Sequence record: OZ035755.1
Origin: Kayfunavirus AN17P1
Direction: 5' to 3' (one strand)
Length of the DNA: 39,656 nt
The notes below the pieces were generated by a model. The model saw nothing but the letters and a program-made list of their open reading frames with translations, was not told where the DNA came from and did no database searches. Of this stretch, positions 833 to 39,656 are shown piece after piece (the stretch's first letter is position 1; each line of letters begins with the position of its first letter). The translations under genes were made by a program, and so were the position numbers.

Positions 833-1259
833 TTACTACAAAGTGGACCCGGCTAGTCCATCCGGTCTGGTCTCCGTTAGGACTGGAAAGCCTGTGGGGA
901 CATTAAGTCGGATGGGATATTGGATAGTACAGACACGAAGTCTAGGCAGTAAGCGGGCCCATCGTGTGATATGGGAACTAACCAATGGTCCTATACCGCA
1001 TGGTATGCAAATAGACCACATCGACAGGAACCCTAGCAATAATACCTTAAGTAACTTACGGCTCGTTACTGCCGCTGAAAACACTTGGAATACTGGTAGC
1101 CATTATGACTCTAAGACAGGAGTGAAGTGCGTTACCCGTCACCAGAATGGTTATAGGATTCAGGTTAAACGCGGGAATGCCTATATGCGAACAACACGTC
1201 CCACTTTAGAGGAGGCTATCGCTGTCCGGGACCTAATGCTGGAGGGACTATATGTCTAA
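822..1259 (+). CDS. HNH homing endonuclease (HNH plus AP2-like DNA-binding region), 145 aa
   Basis: Motif [41 protein letters not shown] typical of phage HNH endonucleases; GTG start with SD AAGGAGG; overlaps the 3' end of 18.5 and the 5' end of terminase; T7 has no gene here. Confidence 0.8.
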
Positions 1260-3018
1260 GAAAACACCCGCTGAAAGACAGGCAGAAATGGTCCAAAGGA
1301 TGAGGGACGACTTCGTGTTCTTCATCTTCGTTCTCTGGAAAGCACTAAGTCTTCCGGTTCCAACCCGCTGCCAGATAGATATGTGTAAGAAGCTGGCTGC
1401 TGGGGATAATCGCCGCTTCATCCTTCAGGCGTTCCGTGGTATTGGCAAGTCGTTTTTGACCTGTGGCTTTGTGGTCTGGAAGCTATGGAATAACCCAGAC
1501 TTGAAGTTCATGATTGTGTCGGCCTCAAAGGAACGAGCCGATGCGAACTCCATCTTCATCAAGCGAATCATCGACCTCATGCCTCAGCTTCGGGAACTCA
1601 AACCTAAGCAGGGGCAGCGAGATGCGGTTATCAGCTTCGACGTTGGACCAGCCAAGCCAGACCACTCACCTTCGGTTAAGTCCGTTGGTATCACTGGTCA
1701 GTTGACTGGTAGTCGTGCTGACATCCTGATTGCCGATGACGTGGAGGTTCCGAACAACTCAGCGACTCAGGCTGCACGAGACCGTCTATCAGAGCTTGTG
1801 AAAGAGTTCGACGCTATCCTGAAGCCGGGAGGTACGATCATCTATCTGGGTACTCCTCAGAACGAGATGACCCTGTACCGTGAGCTGGAAGGTCGTGGGT
1901 ACACCACTACTATCTGGCCCGCTCGTTATCCACGCGACAGGAAGGACTGGCAGTCTTACGGCGACCGTCTGGCTCCTATGCTTCAGGCAGAGCTGGAAGA
2001 GGACCCTGAGTCCTTCTACTGGCGTCCGACTGATGAAGTACGCTTCGATGATACGGACCTGAAGGAACGTGAGCTGTCCTACGGTAAAGCTGGCTTCGCT
2101 CTACAGTTCATGCTTAACCCGAACCTGAGTGATGCCGAGAAGTACCCTCTTAAGCTCCGTGACCTTATCGTAGCCGACTTGGACCCAGCGTCCAGCCCAA
2201 TGGTCTACCAATGGTTGCCGAACCCTCAGAACAAGCGTGAGGACGTTCCTAACGTTGGACTCATGGGTGACTCGTACCACACGTATCAGACTGTAGGTTC
2301 TGCCTTCAGCTCATACACCCAGAAGATTCTGGTCATTGACCCTAGTGGTCGTGGTAAGGATGAAACTGGATATGCGGTACTGTACCAGCTCAACGGCTAC
2401 ATCTTCGCTATGGAAGTTGGTGGCATGCGTGGTGGTTATGAAGACTCTACGCTGGAAGCCTTGGCTAAGATTGGTCGTAAGTGGAAGGTCAACGAGTACG
2501 TCATTGAGGGTAACTTCGGTGATGGTATGTACCTTGAGTTATTCAAGCCTGTAGCGGCCCGTATCCATCCTTCGTCTGTAACTGAAGTGAAGAGTAAGGG
2601 TCAGAAAGAACTCCGCATCTGTGACGTTCTGGAGCCTATCATGGGGTCTCACCGACTTATCGTTAACGCTGCTGCTATAGTCCAAGACTACCAGTCTGCC
2701 TCTGATAAGGATGGTGTTCGTAACCCTATCTACTCTCTCTTCTATCAGATGACACGTATCTCTCGTGAGCGTGGAGCCTTGGCACACGATGACCGACTTG
2801 ATGCGCTGGCTATCGGTGTACAGTTCTTCGTTGAGTCTATGGCTAAGGATGCTAGCAAAGGCGAACGTGAAGTCACTGAGGAATGGCTGGAGGAACAGAT
2901 GGAGAACCCACGGAAAGGCTTCGAGTCCATCCACACTGAGTTCTGGGACAATGGGGTCCGGGTAACTCACGATACGGACGACGAGCTTGGACTAGGGGCA
3001 TACGTTACGTTACACTAG
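1252..3018 (+). CDS. gene 19: Terminase large subunit (T7 gp19 homolog), 588 aa
   Basis: Length and position match T7 gp19 (586 aa); Walker A-like GIGKS and ATPase/nuclease-type motifs (LIADDVEVP); strong SD GGAGGGACTAT before ATG. Confidence 0.95.
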
Positions 3019-3027
3019 CTGAATGAA

Positions 3028-3076
3028 TAACTATAGGTGAAAGCTGCATGAATAAGCAGTTAGTAACCTATAGTTA
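3028..3076. repeat. Perfect 11-bp inverted repeat TAACTATAGGT / ACCTATAGTTA with 27-nt loop
   Basis: Arms at 3028-3038 and 3066-3076 are exact reverse complements; arms contain the promoter core ACTATAGG; lies directly after the terminase stop. Confidence 0.5.
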
Positions 3077-3112
3077 CTACCAGTCTAACATACTGTTTTA
3101 TAAGGAGTTTGG

Positions 3113-3136
3113 ACTTAACTATCACTATAGGGAAGA
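3113..3136 (+). promoter_or_regulatory. Phage RNAP promoter (phiOR-like, right end)
   Basis: TTAACTATCACTATAGGGAAG matches the 11-member consensus CTAAACTATCACTATAGGGA; +1 G at about 3130. Confidence 0.75.
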
Positions 3137-3315
3137 CCCCCGGTTACTTATAGTATTACTGTAGTGAATATACATATGCAGACTTTATTCAAGACCTTAG
3201 GAGGCAGACTCCGAGTTCTTACCTAAGGCTTGCACCGATGGAAGGAGGGTGATATTAATCATAATCCCTCCAATACAGATAGTCACCGACCATAGATACA
3301 GGAGGTATGTAGCAT

Positions 3316-3474
3316 ATGGCAAAGACCAAAGCTGTACTTAAAGCTCTGGCGACCAATCGAGCTACATACAGGTTTCTTGCTGCTGTTCTACTTGCTGCTG
3401 GCGTTACTGCTGGAAGTCAGTGGGTCGGGTGGGTCGAGACTCTCGTATGTTCTCTGGTCTCTCAGTGTAATTAA
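3316..3474 (+). CDS. Small membrane protein, 52 aa (gene 19.5 position)
   Basis: ATG with SD ACAGGAGG; translation MAKTKAVLKALATNRATYRFLAAVLLAAGVTAGSQWVGWVETLVCSLVSQCN has one hydrophobic helix; below the 60-aa track cutoff so read directly from sequence. Confidence 0.45.
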   Translation: MAKTKAVLKALATNRATYRFLAAVLLAAGVTAGSQWVGWVETLVCSLVSQCN

Positions 3475-3510
3475 CGCAATCATGATAACAATCAACGAAA
3501 GGAGGTAGGG

Positions 3511-3579
3511 ATGGACGAGGAGTCTTATGGGCCGTTCTCTGACGAAGATTATCAGACGGAGTGGGAATACGCGCATTGA
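3511..3579 (+). CDS. Very small acidic ORF, 22 aa (MDEESYGPFSDEDYQTEWEYAH)
   Basis: ATG preceded by SD AAAGGAGG at good spacing; no other support. Confidence 0.25.
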   Translation: MDEESYGPFSDEDYQTEWEYAH

Positions 3580-3583
3580 AGAC

Positions 3584-3624
3584 CTAAGGTCAGTTCATAG
3601 CTGACGCTACTCTACTGACCTTAG
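3584..3624. repeat. Inverted repeat CTAAGGTCAGT / ACTGACCTTAG (11-bp stem, 19-nt loop) near the right genome end
   Basis: Exact reverse-complement arms at 3584-3594 and 3614-3624; no downstream U-tract. Confidence 0.45.
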
Positions 3625-3699
3625 CTACTGTAGTCAAGGACTTTAGGTAACACCTTAATAGAAGCTCACTTAGGGTCATCCTACTTATTGGTCTATCCT

Positions 3700-4100
3700 A
3701 GTGTCGCCTGACCTACGGTCCTTGACCTACAGTAGCTGCCACCTACAGTATTCGATGAGTTTTGGACCAAAAGTTTGAGACCACATCTCACAGTTCAAGA
3801 ACCTCAAGTCTCCCCATAGGCCCTCTTTCAGTCCAGACCAAAGGCCCTACCCCAGTCTATCATAAGGTTAGACCGATGGTCAAGACTTCAGGTCAACGAT
3901 AGGTTGTGGCTATGGCTTAGGGAAGGACGATAGGTAGGGACTATTGGTCTGTCTTTGAGTCTCTATCTGTATCAGACCTTGAGTCACTACCTACAGTCTA
4001 ACTACCTACAGTCTAACTACCTACAGTCTAACTACCTACAGTCATCGACCATCGGTAATGCCGCTACCTACAGTCAGAGACCTACGGTTAATAGACACAA
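3700..4100. repeat. Genome terminus region: putative direct terminal repeat flanked by CCTAC(A/G)GT short repeats
   Basis: TCTCACAGTTCAAGAACC...CCCCATAGG at 3786 resembles the T7 (TCTCACAGTGTACGG) and T3 left-end sequences as I recall them; repeated GACCTACGGT / CACCTACAGT motifs on both sides mirror the CCTAAAG arrays flanking the T7 terminal repeat; no CDS. Repeat length cannot be read from a collapsed assembly. Confidence 0.5.
3986..4044. repeat. Tandem array, about 3.9 copies of 15-bp unit ACTACCTACAGTCTA
   Basis: Exact copies at 3986-4000, 4001-4015, 4016-4030 and a partial copy at 4031-4044. Confidence 0.9.
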
Positions 4101-4340
4101 GGCTATAGACTTAAGGTCTAAGACATGTTAGTCAAAGACTACATCCTCTTACACCATGGGGCCGACGATAGCTTAATCAATATTATTTCAAATTACCTAT
4201 TGACTATAGGTCCAGATTATGGCCTAATAGCTTCCGTCAACACGACACGGCAACAACCGGATAGTGAAGACGCCTGGTCATCCCGGTTAAGTAGACAGCC
4301 TGATAAGTCATACGAACAACAGGCAGATGACAGAAAGTAG

Positions 4341-4378
4341 TTGACAAGCAGTAACGATAAGATGTAAGCTGTACCACA
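4341..4378 (+). promoter_or_regulatory. Host sigma70 early promoter candidate (T7 A2/A3-like)
   Basis: Perfect -35 TTGACA (4341-4346), about 18-nt spacer, -10 TAAGCT, then GTACCACAT as in T7 A3 (TACGAT-GTACCACAT) as I recall it; about 200 nt upstream of the first early gene. Confidence 0.5.
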
Positions 4379-4486
4379 TCAAAACAACGGTGACGACCGA
4401 CACTGAAACGGTCTACCTGAAGTCCTCTGACTGAAGGGAATGCTCTTTAACAATCTGGATAAACTCTTAATGTGCGCCGATAGCGA

Positions 4487-4543
4487 CTAACTACAGGGTC
4501 TTTGAGTCTACATCTGAAGGCCCTGACTGATAGTCACTAACAA
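4487..4543 (+). promoter_or_regulatory. Conserved leader element, copy 1 (TAACTACAGGGTC ... CCTGACTGATAGTCACTAA), possible RNase III / translation-initiation leader
   Basis: Shares a 19-nt exact block CCTGACTGATAGTCACTAA and a TAACTACAGG(G)TC block with 4842-4892; ends about 17 nt before the start codon at 4560; small CAGGG/CCCTG stem. Confidence 0.5.
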
Positions 4544-35600: not shown

Positions 35601-36559
35601 ATGCTGGACGTCAGGGATTCCTGTCTGACATCGTGGAGCATAGTCTGACTGGCAGTAAGCGTCGGTTCGATGACCGCTGGCTTAAGACCGCTGGTATATC
35701 TGACGAGCAGTGGAAGGGCATTAAGTCCCTAATCCGTGAGTCAGTGACTCGTGGTCCAGACGGGAAGTACACCATCAAGGATAAGAAGGCGTTCAGTCAG
35801 GACCCAAGGGCTATGGACCTGTGGCGTATGGGTGACACCATCGCTGACGAAACGTTACTCCGGCCCCACAAGCTGTCAAACATGGACGCCAAGGCTTATG
35901 GTCCTCTCGCTAAGACTGTCCTTCAGTTTAAGAACTTCGTCATCAAGTCTATCAATGGGAGAACCATGCGAACCTTCTATAACGCCACGAAGAACAACAG
36001 AGCGATTGACGCTGCACTGTCGACCGTGATGTCTATGGGTCTGGCTGGTATCTACTACATGGCTCAGGCGCATGTCAAGGCTTATGCTATGCAGGATGGT
36101 CGAGACAGTGACTACCTTAAGCAAGCTCTGGACCCAACGATGATTGGCTATGCGGCCCTGTCCCGTAGTTCACATCTTGGTGGCCCACTTGGGGTAGCTA
36201 ACATTCTGGGAGGCATCGCTGGATATGAGGACACTAAGATGCTCCGTTCGTCTATCCTACCTCGTTCGCCTACAGAGAAGCCTGAGCGTGCCATCGCGTA
36301 TGGTGCAGCTACAAGTGACCCTGTGATGAATGTTGTTGGTAACTTCTTGGAGCAGGTTCCAGCTTTCGGATATGCTGCTAACGTTGGCGCTTCGGCTTAC
36401 AACTTGGCTGGCTACCTCAAGGCTGATACTCGTGTCAACGAGCGTGACTACATGACCGGGATGTATAATACGTTCCGTGAACTGGTTCCGAACGACCCCA
36501 TTACCCAGAAGCTGCTGCTTGGAACGTTTGAGGAGCAAGGCATCCACATCAAGGACTAA
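32672..36559 (+). CDS. gene 16: Internal virion protein D with N-terminal lytic transglycosylase domain (T7 gp16 homolog), 1295 aa
   Basis: Long collinear similarity to T7 gp16 as I recall it (VDPLTYVP, RLEARETARN, RSPTGMQSGASGK, YGISH..QFERSS, GLENNSFLEARNLFDSD, NRRVNGDIAIMAGTGKTTK, MDLWRMGD, RAIDAALS); the N-terminal roughly 150 aa fit a peptidoglycan hydrolase domain. Confidence 0.95.
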   Translation: MATRGIRNNNPGNIRVSKDQWEGMTGDDGAFVTFDSPESGVRALGKNLLSYGRQGYDSIEKIINRWAPPNENDTQAYIDSVVAATGIPATQSLDLSDPDTLSSLAQAISFHETGSRYDPEVYQQGVARALNGISPKTPPVSANVFDALTEGLKAKPKVALGENLPTAAGLNIEGQAPEAPNESFGEMFYKATGETMQEREDRSTWFGFGAATEAEVKNSMVGVAIRAGKTEDSLDVIGDVFNPTRWNNHKWSREELDQIRNAGVLPQYYGVITGGSPQNLTELINLALENQKLDQEKAKAGTGAQLAAGVIGAGVDPLTYVPIAGQVGKGGKLVNKMFTVAAQSGALAGVSEMARTSVVGGDAHVAEAILGGALFGGGMTAIADGLGRALGRNTNEFAGPATRLEARETARNVDGQDLSRLPIQEGEQTFSHQGVKFADVPNEPGSVRLEDGSILIGENPLNPKTRQVFDEVIEPERAAAGVNLGGLTEIGLKLLRSENPEIRGVAADLVRSPTGMQSGASGKIGTTASDVFERLRAVDHRFYNDIDDAVTEALKDPYFQTAFWRDSGAFRQDIYQRVSMAIEDGSGNLKAELTPGELKVYDLLKNQFDAKREMMENPAMFGRPDAQSIFPGSRFKGTYVPHVYSKQMKELYIKELGSPEALQEAIKKSWLTSYASRPEVKKRVDEALLEAYPTLTPEGLAAAVDKYANDKAYGISHTEQFERSSVMEENINGLVGLENNSFLEARNLFDSDMSIVLPNGQTFSVNNLREWDMDKIVPAYNRRVNGDIAIMAGTGKTTKGMKDLVETMMNKAGDDGKLKGEVSTLRDTLKILTGRARRDGADDVAFATVMRTMTDLSFFAKNAYMGVQNLTEIGGMLARGNVRALLHGVPMFRDLAFRNKKVGAAEIKDLHNVIFGKELDDSIRPSKQDVIDRLRSYSDLGRGAATALGTAKYYTGELVVRSPFTKVLNGTTNYLLDAGRQGFLSDIVEHSLTGSKRRFDDRWLKTAGISDEQWKGIKSLIRESVTRGPDGKYTIKDKKAFSQDPRAMDLWRMGDTIADETLLRPHKLSNMDAKAYGPLAKTVLQFKNFVIKSINGRTMRTFYNATKNNRAIDAALSTVMSMGLAGIYYMAQAHVKAYAMQDGRDSDYLKQALDPTMIGYAALSRSSHLGGPLGVANILGGIAGYEDTKMLRSSILPRSPTEKPERAIAYGAATSDPVMNVVGNFLEQVPAFGYAANVGASAYNLAGYLKADTRVNERDYMTGMYNTFRELVPNDPITQKLLLGTFEEQGIHIKD

Positions 36560-36578
36560 ACTATCACTATAGGAAACG
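36555..36578 (+). promoter_or_regulatory. Phage RNAP promoter (phi17-like)
   Basis: GACTAAACTATCACTATAGGAAAC; overlaps the gp16 stop. Confidence 0.75.
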
Positions 36579-36623
36579 GGAGGCGCTACCATAGGTCTCC
36601 GTTTAAATAACAAAGGAGGCATA

Positions 36624-39155
36624 ATGTCCACGATTACACAATTCCCTTCAGGAAACACTCAGTACAGGATTGAGTTCGACTACCTAGCCAGAACGTTTGT
36701 TGTTGTTACGCTGGTGAATAGCTCTAACCCTACCCTGAACCGTGTACTGGAAGTTGGTCGAGATTACCGATTCCTTAATCCAACGATGATTGAGATGTTG
36801 GTTGACCAATCAGGTTTCGACATAGTTCGTATTCACCGTCAGACTGGAACTGACTTAGTGGTAGACTTCAGGAATGGCTCAGTGTTGACAGCTAGTGACC
36901 TGACCAATGCAGAGCTTCAGGCTATCCATATTGCAGAAGAAGGTCGAGACCAAACGGTTGACTTAGCGAAGGAATATGCCGATGCTGCTGGTAGCTCTGC
37001 TGGCAACGCTAAGGATAGCGAGGACGAAGCACGCCGAATCGCTGCGAGTATCAGGGAAGCTGGTCTAATTGGCTATATTACCCGTCGCTCCTTCGAGAAA
37101 GGCTACAACGTTACAACATGGAGTGAGGTCCTGCTATGGGAAGAGGATGGTGATTATTACCGCTGGGATGGTACGCTTCCAAAGAACGTTCCTGCTGGTT
37201 CAACTCCTGAAACTTCCGGTGGGATTGGATTAGGTGCGTGGGTTAGTGTTGGTGATGCTGCTTTAAGAAGTCAGATTTCAAACCCGGAAGGGGCAATACT
37301 CTACCCGGAATTGCAGATGGCAAGATGGCGTGATGAGGGTGATGTTCGAGGCTGGGGTGCTAAAGGGGATGGTGTAACAGATAGTACGGAGAATATAGCT
37401 GCTTCACTAAATTCTCAAAAAGCTGTCGTAGCATCAGAAGGTGTATTCTCTAGTTCTGGTATTAATAGTAATTACTGTAACTTAGACGGTAGGGGTAGTG
37501 GCGTGCTAAGTCACCGTTCCAGTACAGGTAACTACTTAGTATTTAACAATCCACGTACAGGTCGCTTAAGTAATATTACGGTAGAAAGTAATAAGGCGAC
37601 TGATACAACTCAGGGACAGCAGGTATCTCTTGCGGGTGGAAGTGATGTTACTGTAAGTGACGTTAACTTCTCAAACGTTAAAGGTACTGGTTTCAGTTTA
37701 ATCGCATACCCTAATGATGCGCCACCTGATGGACTTATGATTAAAGGCATTCGAGGTAGCTATTCCGGCTATGCTACTAATAAGGCAGCCGGATGCGTAC
37801 TTGCTGACTCCTCAGTTAACTCCCTCATAGATAACGTCATTGCTAAGAACTACCCTCAGTTCGGAGCAGTGGAGTTGAAAGGTACAGCCAGTTACAACAT
37901 AGTCAGTAATGTTATAGGGGCAGATTGCCAGCATGTAACTTACAACGGCACTGAAGGGCTAATAGCTCCTTCTAATAACATTATAAAGGGGGTGATTGCT
38001 AATAACCCTAAGTATGCAGCGGTTGTTGCAGGCAAAGGAAATACGAACTTAATCTCAGACGTGCTCGTAGATTACTCAACTTCTGATGCTAGGCAGGCTC
38101 ATGGCATTACCGTAGAAGGGTCTGATAACGTCATAAATAATGTGCTTATGTCAGGATGTGATGGTACTAACTCTTTAGGACAAGGGCAGACTGCTACAAT
38201 TGCACGCTTTATAGGTACAGCTAATAACAACTATGCGTCTGTATTTCCTAGCTACAGTGCTACAGGTGTTATTACTTTCGAATCCGGCTCTACCCGTAAC
38301 TTCGTAGAGGTAAAGCACCCTGGCAGGAGAAACGACCTTCTCAGTTCTGCTAGTACTATTGACGGTGCAGCTACTATTGACGGCACTAGTAATAGTAACG
38401 TAGTGCACGCACCTGCCTTAGGGCAGTACATAGGTAGTATGTCAGGTAGGTTCGAATGGCGGATTAAGGCCATGTCACTCCCTTCAGGCGTTCTTACTTC
38501 TGCTGATAAGTACAGAATGCTTGGGGATGGTGCTGTGTCATTAGCTGTAGGTGGTGGTGCATCTTCTCAAGTTCGACTATTTACTTCTGATGGTATTTAT
38601 CGGACAGTATCCCTCACCAACGGCAACGTGCGTCTTCCTACCAGTAGCACAGGTTATTTGCAGTTAGGTCCTGATGCAATGACCCCAGATAGTACTAATA
38701 CATACGCATTAGGTTCCGCAAGTAGAGCATGGTCTGGCGGTTTTACTCAATCAGCATTCACTGTTGTCTCAGATGCTAGGGATAAAACAGAGCCTCTTAA
38801 TATCTCAGATGCTTTACTGGATGCTTGGTCTGAAGTTGACTTTGTGCAGTTTCAGTACTTGGACCGAATTGAGGAGAAGGGTGCAGACTCAGCTAGATGG
38901 CACTTCGGCATCATCGCTCAGCGAGCTAAGGAGGCCTTCGAACGTCACGGTATAGATGCACATCGCTATGGCTTCCTGTGCTTCGACAGTTGGGATGATG
39001 TATACGAGGAAGATGCCAATGGCTCTCGTAAACTGATTACACCAGCAGGTTCCCGCTACGGTATTCGTTACGAGGAAGTACTGATATTAGAGGCTGCGTT
39101 GATGCGGCGTACTATTAAGCGTATGCAGGAAGCATTAGCTGTTATGTCTAAGTGA
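36624..39155 (+). CDS. gene 17: Tail fiber / tailspike: T7 gp17-like N-terminal tail-attachment domain, beta-helix (pectate-lyase-like) domain, C-terminal intramolecular chaperone (peptidase S74-like) domain; 843 aa
   Basis: First roughly 150 aa collinear with T7 gp17 (FDYLARTFVVVTL, DYRF, VDFRNGSVLTASDL, AIHIAEEGRD); middle has GAKGDGVTD beta-helix hallmark and Gly/Asn/Ser/Thr/Val-rich repeats; C-terminus VVSDARDKTEP...WHFGIIAQ...YGFLCFDSWDD fits the self-cleaving chaperone domain of endosialidase-type tailspikes. Confidence 0.9.
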   Translation: MSTITQFPSGNTQYRIEFDYLARTFVVVTLVNSSNPTLNRVLEVGRDYRFLNPTMIEMLVDQSGFDIVRIHRQTGTDLVVDFRNGSVLTASDLTNAELQAIHIAEEGRDQTVDLAKEYADAAGSSAGNAKDSEDEARRIAASIREAGLIGYITRRSFEKGYNVTTWSEVLLWEEDGDYYRWDGTLPKNVPAGSTPETSGGIGLGAWVSVGDAALRSQISNPEGAILYPELQMARWRDEGDVRGWGAKGDGVTDSTENIAASLNSQKAVVASEGVFSSSGINSNYCNLDGRGSGVLSHRSSTGNYLVFNNPRTGRLSNITVESNKATDTTQGQQVSLAGGSDVTVSDVNFSNVKGTGFSLIAYPNDAPPDGLMIKGIRGSYSGYATNKAAGCVLADSSVNSLIDNVIAKNYPQFGAVELKGTASYNIVSNVIGADCQHVTYNGTEGLIAPSNNIIKGVIANNPKYAAVVAGKGNTNLISDVLVDYSTSDARQAHGITVEGSDNVINNVLMSGCDGTNSLGQGQTATIARFIGTANNNYASVFPSYSATGVITFESGSTRNFVEVKHPGRRNDLLSSASTIDGAATIDGTSNSNVVHAPALGQYIGSMSGRFEWRIKAMSLPSGVLTSADKYRMLGDGAVSLAVGGGASSQVRLFTSDGIYRTVSLTNGNVRLPTSSTGYLQLGPDAMTPDSTNTYALGSASRAWSGGFTQSAFTVVSDARDKTEPLNISDALLDAWSEVDFVQFQYLDRIEEKGADSARWHFGIIAQRAKEAFERHGIDAHRYGFLCFDSWDDVYEEDANGSRKLITPAGSRYGIRYEEVLILEAALMRRTIKRMQEALAVMSK

Positions 39156-39493
39156 GTAATACTGGTACGGTATTTTCGCACAATGAAATCGTTGAACACA
39201 CTGACGAGGAGGGTAATGTCACTACTACGGAAGAACCTGTATACACCGAGGTGTTTATTCACGAAGAGGGTGGGGAGTAGGGTGTTCGGCCTGACGGAAT
39301 TTTCTTTGCTGAAGCCGCTTATCAGAGAAGAAAACTGGAAAGAATCGAAGCCAGACTTTCTGCTCTTGAACAGAAGTAATAAACAAAACCATTTTGCCAT
39401 TAAGTTGGTGTGGGGGGGTAGAGACTAACTACACGCTAACCAACGTATGTAACAACTTTGGGTCACGGACGACCCGCTTTAAACTGGAGGTTT

Positions 39494-39656
39494 TATGATT
39501 GAGTTAGACTTCAAGAATGAGGTCCTTAAAGCCTCTCCTATCGTCGGGACCGCTGCGGCTGATGGTGCCAGTCGGTTCTTCTTCGGACTTACACTGAACG
39601 AATGGTTCTACGTTGCAGCTATCGCGTACACCGTTGTCCAGATTGGTGTGCTAGTC
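39494..39656 (+). CDS. gene 17.5: Class II holin (T7 gp17.5 homolog), 5' part only; runs off the window end
   Basis: MIELDFKNEVLKASPIVGTAAADGASRFFFGLTLNEWFYVAAIAYTVVQIG... versus T7 gp17.5 MLSLDFNNELIKAAPIVGTGVADVSARLFFGLSLNEWFYVAAIAYTVVQIG as I recall it; SD CTGGAGG. Confidence 0.85.

Follow-up and report, generated by a model that had tools for sequence, protein, structure and literature searches.

The tailspike gene of Kayfunavirus AN17P1: a K5-lyase-type cassette behind a K1F-type anchor, followed by the relic of an endosialidase gene

Gene 17 and the domains of its product

The window analyzed here is the whole 39,656-nt stretch of Kayfunavirus AN17P1 DNA (OZ035755.1), a circularly permuted K1F-like (Kayfunavirus) genome in which the open reading frame at 36624-39155 on the plus strand is gene 17. 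This 843-aa frame was found exactly as a preceding sequence-only reading of the locus had claimed it. It lies between the end of gp16 (1295 aa) at 36559 and the start of the holin gene at 39496, in an order colinear with that of K1F; because the genome is permuted, holin gene 17.5 is incomplete at the end of the window. A Shine-Dalgarno sequence (AAGGAGG) is present before gene 17 at 36613-36619, and further upstream lies a phage RNA polymerase promoter core, ACTATCACTATAGG, of which the plus strand of the window holds 11 copies vs. 0.24 expected by chance. Scanning of positions 36400-39656 for sigma-70 promoters and terminators gave no hits above those in shuffled sequence, and such signals were set aside, as gene 17 is transcribed by the phage RNA polymerase. 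Minus-strand open reading frames over the gene (e.g., 36257-36658 and 39068-39400) were dismissed as shadow ORFs. The features of the locus are as follows:

36560-36573, plus strand: phage RNA polymerase promoter core ACTATCACTATAGG, upstream of gene 17 (sequence read and copy count)
36624-39155, plus strand: gene 17, tailspike precursor, 843 aa, 90.3 kDa (open reading frame and full-length match to PDB 9vvr_A)
36624-37073, plus strand: T7 gp17-type tail anchor and Ala/Asp/Lys-rich segment, aa 1-150 (Pfam PF03906; 7boz, 8dsp)
37089-37256, plus strand: Tail_spike_N of the TSP1/gp66 type (PF18668; CBA120 TSP1, G7C gp66), aa 156-211 (Pfam, PDB chains)
37302-37312, no strand: 5' crossover interval TACCC(G/T)GAATT, an 11-nt identity (K1F-type upstream, Gamaleyavirus-K5-lyase-type downstream)
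37347-38771, plus strand: K5 heparosan lyase beta-helix and C-terminal trimerizing stalk, aa 242-716 (identity to 2x3h, phrog_14895)
37493-38510, plus strand: patch of the K5A/K1-5 allele, gene nt ~870-1887 (informative sites; flanks of the UE-S5b/ZG49 allele)
38769-38774, plus strand: predicted autocleavage between Ser716 and Asp717 (S74 profile start, 2x3h end, dyad alignment)
38772-39152, plus strand: Peptidase_S74 intramolecular chaperone, aa 717-843, 14.7 kDa (PF13884; 3gud, 3gw6)
39166-39171, no strand: 3' crossover in the 6-nt microhomology TACGGT (80-nt junction query)
39166-39377, plus strand: 3' relic of a K1F-type endosialidase gene 17, last 70 codons and stop (identity to K1F)
39496-39656, plus strand: holin gene 17.5, start only (identical to the start of K1F 17.5)

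At the N-terminus, the previously noticed match to T7 gp17 is real, with PF03906 (Phage_T7_tail) found at aa 10-115 (57.2 bits, cutoff 25.2) and the T7 gp17 chains 7boz and 8dsp aligning with aa 6-116 (E = 1e−16 to 1e−17), but the extent of about 150 aa that had been given to it did not hold. As many as 225 of the first 229 residues are identical in the K1F endosialidase, and the vertically inherited N-terminal portion amounts to ~229 aa, Tail_spike_N included. The Tail_spike_N domain itself had been overlooked; it sits between the anchor and the lyase, scores 69.3 bits against PF18668 (gathering cutoff 25), and the CBA120 TSP chains 4oj5, 5w6h, 5w6f, and 6nw9 align with aa 151-224. A Pfam LEA_4 match at aa 104-132 (15 bits, cutoff 51) was put down to low complexity in the Ala/Asp/Lys-rich segment and rejected.

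The polysaccharide depolymerase domain suspected in the central part was recovered at aa 242-716, where the protein is 94.5% identical to the crystallized K5 lyase KflA (chain 2x3h; 475 aa, ungapped, E = 1e−288). Overall identity to KflA is 94.7% across aa 242-843, and only eight differences (97.8% identity) were counted in the lyase core, aa 272-630. The phrog_14895 match covers aa 209-843 (1297 bits), while a pectate-lyase-like Pfam match stayed below threshold (16 bits vs. 27), and, of the eight core substitutions, five (L446, I453, I458, N473, and I495) are found in neither KflA nor the PDB entry 9vvr; the other three are E272, G521, and A616. KflA is a trimeric beta-helical protein (PMC8822698), and identity to 2x3h (94.5%) and to 9vvr (96.4%) suggests a trimeric right-handed parallel beta-helix fold here. 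From the overall identity to KflA, with its eight differences in aa 272-630, conservation of the active site is predicted; the enzyme would be a lyase (beta-elimination) and not a hydrolase, and the capsule- or O-antigen-specific host range proposed earlier can be sharpened to a predicted specificity for the E. coli K5 (heparosan) capsule. The GAKGDGVTD motif, which had been taken for a beta-helix signature, does stand at aa 245-253, in the linker adjoining the 5' crossover, but it has no diagnostic value, because the K1F endosialidase, which is not a K5 lyase and the catalytic domain of which is labeled as a beta-propeller in one GenBank record, carries it too.

For the last ~130 aa, the assignment to a self-cleaving chaperone domain was upheld by PF13884 (aa 716-776, 52.8 bits, cutoff 22), as well as by matches to 3gud (GA-1 neck appendage protein), which covers aa 716-838 at most (716-834 also given), and to 3gw6 (Endo-N-acetylneuraminidase), which covers aa 686-838. 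The candidate cleavage site VVS-DARDK also stood, as the S74 profile begins exactly at S716 of this motif and the crystallized KflA chain 2x3h stops at the homologous Ser. Lys721 (codon 38784-38786), five residues after Ser716, completes a Ser-Lys dyad, and in the alignment to K1F/endoNF the residues S716 and K721 correspond to S911 and K916, the catalytic dyad of endoNF (PMC8326128). The predicted mature spike comprises aa 1-716 (75.6 kDa). One K1F record carries the labels 'precursor of gp17' and 'gp17-CTD'.

Composition, cassette junctions, and the endosialidase relic

The AT-richness of the gene and its excess of AAT, AGT, and TTA codons, both described earlier by eye, were borne out by sliding-window GC and codon counts, the composition being non-uniform. 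The GC content is 0.461 in gene 17, 0.439 in the part coding for aa 242-600, and 0.499 in the genome, and across the genome GC in 1000-nt windows drops furthest at 37401 (0.432; mean 0.499, sd 0.024). GC3 is 0.380 in gene 17 vs. 0.548 ± 0.038 (minimum 0.459) in the 24 other genes, and reaches 0.34 in the lyase; when 150-codon windows from the whole genome are ranked by GC3, the lowest 15 (15/15) all fall in gene 17. Since GC at codon positions 1 + 2 is normal (0.49-0.50 in gene 17, 0.49 in the lyase), the shift is synonymous and not an amino-acid effect. Codon usage in aa 254-716 vs. the other genes differs accordingly for AAT (45% vs. 20%, binomial p = 4e−4), AGT (36% vs. 11%, p = 2e−7), TTA (34% vs. 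10%, p = 3e−4), and CTG (0/29 vs. 40%, p = 8e−7). While the shift is real, its start had been placed at ~37250 and the boundary is in fact at ~37302-37312 (aa ~227-230); GC3 is already reduced from about aa 150. With a GC content of ~0.45, the cassette is closer to the loci of UE-S5b (0.434) and K1-5 (0.42-0.48) than to the Kayfunavirus backbone (0.50).

The start of the foreign block is aa ~229 (nt ~37307) instead of aa 150. Aligned from 37200, the window equals K1F through 37306, and K1F departs from 37313, while UE-S5b is only ~70% identical to gene 17 before gene nt ~690 and 100% identical from there. At the 3' end, an 80-nt junction query was matched at 100% by the UE Gamaleyavirus phages over positions 1-46 (to 39171) and, also at 100%, by K1F-type phages over positions 41-80 (from 39166); the 16 nt past the stop of gene 17 continue as UE-S5b's own downstream sequence. 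The whole 3' junction was found in 13 records, which represent 12 K5-lyase Kayfunavirus phages (ZG49 is listed twice), and because all of them, ZG49 included, carry the same junction, a single ancestral event is argued for.

Beyond this junction, 208/212 nt are identical to K1F gene 17, and the translation of this relic, ending in VRPDGIFFAEAAYQRRKLERIEARLSALEQK and two stop symbols, is the C-terminus of K1F gp17. The relic is inactivated by TGG>TAG at 39278-39280 and lies in a different frame from gene 17, two reasons why translational read-through from gp17 into it was ruled out. The relic region also holds a 42-codon acidic ORF (39152-39280). The relic of the displaced endosialidase gene, together with the junctions common with Gamaleyavirus K5 lyase genes, substantiates the horizontal acquisition that had been proposed for this gene. 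The donor can be named as 'Gamaleyavirus-type' only, and the actual source could be a phage not yet sampled that has identical flanks.

An internal patch of the lyase carries another allele. Inside it, 87/89 informative sites are of the K5A/K1-5 type, while in its flanks the UE-S5b/ZG49 type is found at 72 sites 5' of the patch and at about 27 sites 3' of it (PDP21P1, Midid, and 22664UKE3-2 were left out of the allele scoring). Compared with the K5A kflA DNA, the patch is 99-100% identical in most 100-nt windows and 95-98% identical at gene nt ~1300-1540. The lyase core was thus overwritten by the K5A/K1-5 allele in a second, later recombination.

Proposed working and history of the locus

We consider it highly probable that gene 17 encodes the sole tailspike of a K1F-like podovirus specific for the E. 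coli K5 capsule, and that it has arisen by a cassette swap. Activity, processing, and host range are those that we infer from 94-96% identity to characterized proteins. In the proposed working, the 843-aa chains would trimerize with the aid of the C-terminal S74 chaperone, and once the stalk is folded, the Ser716-Lys721 dyad would cut after Ser716, freeing the 14.7-kDa chaperone and leaving a 716-aa mature spike. The T7 gp17-type N-terminus (aa 1-~150) would hold the spikes on the tail, presumably as six trimers per tail by analogy with T7, and the virion would tunnel through the capsule. As for the history, the sequence shows that a K1F-type endosialidase gene lost the stretch between aa ~229 and its last 70 codons to a ~1.86-kb cassette, which carried a Gamaleyavirus-type K5 lyase, starting at aa ~229 and ending 10-16 nt past the stop codon; the crossovers fell in the 11-nt (37302-37312) and 6-nt (39166-39171) identities. 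The last 70 codons of the endosialidase remained as a dead relic, and homologous recombination later put the K5A/K1-5 allele in place of the lyase core (gene nt ~870-1887).

Three other explanations were weighed. The transfer could have run in reverse, from a Kayfunavirus gene to the K5 lyases of Gamaleyavirus and Vectrevirus, with the block downstream of gene 17 as an independent insertion. Identity by itself is symmetric, and the UE Gamaleyavirus phages have an endosialidase with a 3' end 97% identical to the relic, which argues for exchange between Kayfunavirus and Gamaleyavirus in more than one direction. However, the relic is colinear with the 3' end of K1F gene 17, the intergenic region, and the holin gene, so that the Kayfunavirus locus was the interrupted one; the 16 nt after the stop run on into the downstream sequence of UE-S5b, and the GC and GC3 of the cassette match low-GC phages and not the Kayfunavirus backbone. 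We therefore regard a reverse transfer as very improbable.

Slightly less credible still is a spike that acts as an inactive, lectin-like adhesin for heparosan- or heparan-sulfate-like glycans, as proposed for the tail fibre of phage ES17. The ES17 protein (ES17-TFP), distantly related to K5 lyase in structure, bound heparan sulfate, while its lyase activity was undetected (bioRxiv 10.1101/2020.07.20.212829), and the five AN17P1 substitutions seen in neither KflA nor 9vvr all lie within aa 446-495. Against this, ES17-TFP is just remotely KflA-like (HHpred E = 4e−12), whereas the AN17P1 spike is 97.8% identical to active KflA over aa 272-630 and its core DNA is 95-100% identical to K5A kflA per 100-nt window.

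The last explanation, by which the gene is not foreign but was inherited vertically within Kayfunavirus and its AT-richness reflects a Ser/Asn/Thr/Gly-rich beta-helix composition, can be dismissed as having next to no probability: although beta-helix tailspikes abound in residues with AT-rich codons and GC in the N-terminal part of gene 17 (36500-36900) likewise falls short of the genome average, it is refuted by a shift at third positions (GC3 0.34 vs. 0.49 at positions 1 + 2), by a synonymous codon choice unlike that of the genome (CTG 0/29 vs. 40%, p = 8e−7), by 93-100% identity at the DNA level with Schitoviridae and Molineuxvirinae phage genes, and by the analysis of the junctions, in which the endosialidase relic marks a replacement.

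Significance and comparison with known relatives

With the cassette swap as the preferred reading, the locus is a cleanly resolved switch of capsule specificity from K1 to K5, with mapped crossovers, a recognizable donor context, a relic, and a later allele swap. Tailspike modularity across phage families is already well accepted, and the locus illustrates this picture while leaving it unchanged. Gene 17 predicts infection of K5-encapsulated E. coli, which could help in selecting phages for therapy and in obtaining heparosan lyase. Without its sulfate groups, the backbone of mammalian heparan sulfate is heparosan, so that the spike might additionally attach to this mammalian glycan, or trim it, on the gut or urinary epithelium and in mucus; we hold this to be rather unlikely, along with a lesser variant in which the undecayed relic is kept for a function. 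If true, heparan sulfate binding would enrich the phage at the sites inhabited by K5 E. coli, an effect also proposed for the unrelated phage ES17. The probiotic strain Nissle 1917 is reported to carry a K5 capsule (PMC6895014).

The entire gene is present at 95.8-99.2% nt identity in 13 GenBank Kayfunavirus records, including AN24P4, vB_EcoP-101120B2, PM129-139, IME177, and R1. The PDB entry 9vvr ('Tail spike protein', 843 aa, 18 chains), for which the literature search gave no publication or entry description, has the same length and architecture and 96.4% aa identity over its full length, but differs at 30 aa, mostly within aa 433-684, where it resembles the UE-S5b/ZG49 allele. T7 gp17 has the attachment domain in common with gene 17 (aa 6-116, equivalent to T7 aa 12-122) and the same position between genes 16 and 17.5, while being a non-enzymatic fibre without Tail_spike_N, beta-helix, or S74.

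The K1F gp17 endosialidase (endoNF) shares with the AN17P1 spike aa 1-229 (98% identical), the GAKGDGVTD linker, a homologous S74 chaperone with Ser911/Lys916, and the same promoter-to-holin slot. In contrast, the two chaperones are just ~38% identical, the catalytic part is unrelated (106/448 aligned residues identical, aa 254-715), and the target of K1F is the K1 capsule vs. the K5 capsule predicted for AN17P1. KflA of coliphage K5A (PDB 2x3h; GenBank Y10025) has the same S74 chaperone and cleavage Ser, but measures 632 aa, with only ~30 aa N-terminal to the region common with gp17; the spikes of the SP6-like relatives K1E and K1-5 attach via a short N-terminal peptide to a separate adaptor protein (PMC5380687). 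The AN17P1 lyase is instead joined to a 229-aa T7/K1F-type anchor with Tail_spike_N, and its linker (aa 230-271), stalk tip, and chaperone are of the UE-S5b/ZG49 allele.

The 'K5 lyase' genes of the Gamaleyavirus (Schitoviridae) phages UE-S5a/b, UE-M3, and UE-M6 are identical to gene 17 over both cassette junctions (gene nt ~690-830, and nt ~2090 to the stop and 16 nt beyond), and that of UE-S5b additionally has a homologous Tail_spike_N and a W(V/L)SVGDAALR motif. They differ in that their own aa 1-~100 are unrelated, their core is a ~9% diverged allele, and their neighbors, in an N4-like genome of ~74 kb, are an endosialidase and an adaptor protein. Among the literature matches listed, no paper combined 'K5 lyase' with 'remnant', and one preprint mentions Kayfunavirus together with K5 lyase. 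Set beside these systems, the tailspike is of an already known kind, a K5 capsule lyase on a T7-like anchor with a self-cleaving chaperone, and the sole new detail is the leftover of the replaced sialidase gene.

Tailspike gene and its product

The following features and profile matches define gene 17 and its product gp17, with amino acid (aa) and gene nucleotide (nt) positions counted from the start of the gene.

Gene 17 and the domains of gp17
36560-36573, +: phage-RNA-polymerase promoter core ACTATCACTATAGG, 5' of gene 17 (sequence match)
36613-36619: strong Shine-Dalgarno sequence AAGGAGG of gene 17 (sequence read)
36624-39155, +: gene 17, 843 aa (ORF call)
aa 10-115: Phage_T7_tail (Pfam profile, 57 bits, cutoff 25)
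aa 156-211: Tail_spike_N, PF18668 (69 bits, cutoff 25)
aa 241-364: Pectate-lyase-like (16 bits, under the cutoff of 27)
aa 716-776: Peptidase_S74, first residue exactly Ser716 (53 bits, cutoff 22)

The ORF agrees exactly with the sequence-only reading, from which Tail_spike_N was absent. The promoter core was found in 11 copies in the window, all on the + strand (3118, 6369, 9435, 11295, 12260, 14646, 20663, 23487, 24496, 29284, and 36560), against 0.24 expected by chance.

A PDB sequence search matched gp17 to 9vvr_A ('Tail spike protein', 843 aa, 18 chains; 96.4% identity, full-length and ungapped), and its aa 242-716 to 2x3h, the K5 lyase KflA of coliphage K5A (94.5% identity, with only 8 differences in aa 272-630). 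By this near-identity to KflA, gp17 is predicted to depolymerise E. coli K5 capsules, with specificity for the polysaccharide heparosan, [-4)-βGlcA-(1,4)-αGlcNAc-(1-], which KflA cuts as a lyase (PMC5380687). KflA is described as trimeric and β-helical, its central β-helix leading into a β-prism or triple-stranded β-helix (PMC8822698). A role as a non-catalytic adhesin, as in ES17, is unlikely given that the gp17 core is 97.8% identical to active KflA. Five gp17 substitutions (L446, I453, I458, N473, and I495) are found neither in KflA nor in 9vvr, and all fall in a 50-residue stretch of the β-helix (aa 446-495, 37959-38108).

The C-terminal S74 chaperone that had been claimed was recovered both by the Peptidase_S74 profile and by PDB matches to 3gud (aa 716-834) and 3gw6 (aa 686-838); intramolecular chaperone domain families include endoNF, the endosialidase of K1F, and the GA-1 neck appendage protein (PMC8326128). 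The cleavage site predicted at VVS-DARDK appears correct, as S716 aligns with the last residue of the 2x3h chain, a Ser, and S716 and K721 align with K1F gp17 S911 and K916, which form the Ser-Lys dyad for autocleavage in endoNF (PMC8326128). The predicted masses are 90.3 kDa for the precursor, 75.6 kDa for the mature protein, and 14.7 kDa for the released chaperone. By homology, the T7-type N-terminus would anchor the spike to the tail, and gp17 would trimerise, process itself, and tunnel through the capsule.

A lyase cassette in place of an endosialidase

Junctions of the lyase cassette
37302-37312: 5' crossover, TACCC(G/T)GAATT (K1F and UE-S5b alignments)
39166-39171: 3' crossover, 6-nt overlap TACGGT
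39166-39377: endosialidase relic, last 70 codons of a K1F-type gene (208/212 nt identical to K1F)

The inherited part of gp17 had been placed in the first ~150 aa as a match to T7 gp17, but it is 229 aa long (225/229 positions identical to the K1F endosialidase). A further 19/24 positions match in aa 230-253, beyond which the two proteins are unrelated as far as the chaperone. The motif GAKGDGVTD (aa 245-253) is present as reported, but it also occurs in the K1F endosialidase and is thus part of a shared linker, not diagnostic of a β-helix. Gene nt 1-~634 or 1-~760 are common to many Kayfunavirus phages with other spikes. From nt ~690, the DNA is 100% identical to the 'K5 lyase' genes of UE-S5a/b, UE-M3, and UE-M6, which belong to Gamaleyavirus (N4-like, Schitoviridae); 5' of this point, inside the common Tail_spike_N domain, these genes are only ~70% similar.

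At the other end, the 16 nt 3' of the stop (GTAATACTGGTACGGT) occur unchanged downstream of the UE-S5b lyase, and the relic leads into an intergenic region of K1F type and then the holin gene. An 80-nt query spanning this junction gave three classes of matches: 13 records, representing 12 Kayfunavirus phages (ZG49 twice), matched throughout, UE phages matched positions 1-46 at 100%, and K1F-type endosialidase phages matched positions 41-80 at 100%; the overlap of the latter two defines the 3' crossover. One of the four relic substitutions changed TGG to TAG (39278-39280). ZG49 has the same 3' junction, yet little of the relic is left in it, and parts of the relic are missing from IME177, 22664UKE3-2, and SHAK7854. 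This common junction with varying relic loss points to one replacement event in a K1F-like ancestral phage, after which the relic decayed. The relic also creates a 42-codon acidic ORF with a GTG start (39152-39280, +), which overlaps the gene 17 stop, lacks a Shine-Dalgarno sequence, and is unlikely to be expressed.

The UE-type junctions, the endosialidase relic, and the foreign GC3 together support the proposed horizontal acquisition of a receptor-binding/depolymerase module. The reverse transfer, with Kayfunavirus as the lyase source, is unlikely, because it was the Kayfunavirus locus that was interrupted, and because the composition of the cassette resembles low-GC phages: its GC (~0.45) is closer to the UE-S5b (0.434) and K1-5 (0.42-0.48) loci than to the Kayfunavirus backbone. 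Since UE phages hold an endosialidase with a relic-like 3' end (97% identity between UE-M3 and the relic), tailspike parts have crossed between the two genera more than once. In the UE-S5b locus (PP301341, 1025-7918), as in Gamaleyavirus UE phages, adaptor gene, endosialidase, and K5 lyase adjoin.

Sliding-window GC and GC3 gave quantitative support to the reported AT-richness. GC was 0.499 in the genome (mean of 1000-nt windows 0.499, sd 0.024), 0.461 in gene 17, and 0.439 in aa 242-600, and no 1000-nt window of the genome is lower than that at 37401 (0.432). GC3 of gene 17 was 0.380, against 0.548 ± 0.038 (minimum 0.459) in 24 other genes, and the 15 lowest windows of a 150-codon genome scan all fall within it. 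An effect of amino-acid composition is excluded, as codon positions 1+2 have a normal GC (0.49-0.50) and the shift is therefore synonymous. All three codons named earlier are enriched in aa 254-716 relative to elsewhere (AAT 45% vs 20%, AGT 36% vs 11%, TTA 34% vs 10%), while CTG is missing (0/29 vs 40%; binomial p for the four from 4e-4 to 2e-7). The Tail_spike_N segment (aa 151-241, 37074-37346), also common to other Kayfunavirus phages, already has a GC3 of 0.40, a hint that this domain is itself an older import.

Recombination among lyase alleles

Sites informative between the UE-S5b and K5A alleles form blocks along gene 17. Nt 644-831 are UE-type (72 sites), nt 870-1887 are K5A/K1-5-type at 87/89 informative sites, and nt ~2014-2531 are UE-type again. 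Within the middle block, DNA identity to K5A kflA is 99-100% in most 100-nt windows, falling to 95-98% at nt ~1300-1540. Judged from the alleles, a second recombination occurred within the cassette. The ZG49 lyase, in contrast, is UE-type throughout, without the K5A-type block, and that of IME177 is a further, different patchwork. From these patterns, Studiervirinae, Molineuxvirinae, and Schitoviridae phages appear to be still exchanging K5 lyase alleles by homologous recombination. In ZG49 (NC_047777, 4001-7241) the tailspike is annotated as two CDS, gp38 ending at aa ~686 and gp39 repeating aa 453-843, which reflects either a partial duplication in tandem or an artefact of assembly.

Genome context and known systems

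Genes at the window ends
30-293: small terminase gene 18 (Pfam DNA_Packaging_2)
380-832: Rz-like gene 18.5
822-1259, +: HNH_3 endonuclease ORF, 145 aa (74 bits)
1252-3018: large terminase gene
39496-39656: start of holin gene 17.5, continuing past the right end

As a Kayfunavirus genome (K1F-like, T7 supergroup), the window is circularly permuted: it is cut inside holin gene 17.5, with the genes for the small terminase, the Rz-like protein, and the large terminase at its left end. Many Kayfunavirus records match its backbone at 93-97.5% identity. The HNH_3 ORF, probably a mobile homing endonuclease, sits between 18.5 and the large terminase gene, where K1F has a 29-nt gap and no annotated gene. 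A second region with GC as low as the lyase region (0.42-0.44 in 500-1000-nt windows) occupies ~3000-4500, directly past the 3' end of the large terminase gene, in the area of the early region and the permuted genome ends.

In the literature that could be searched, no report was found of the endosialidase relic or of the microhomology junctions mapped here to the exact crossover; they neatly illustrate a principle that is not new. The gene 17 finding itself is already known, since the architecture, enzyme, chaperone mechanism, and modular tailspike exchange are established (PMC5380687, PMC6966330, PMC8326128), the PDB holds a near-identical full-length protein, and the whole gene occurs in 13 GenBank phage records at 96-99% nucleotide identity.
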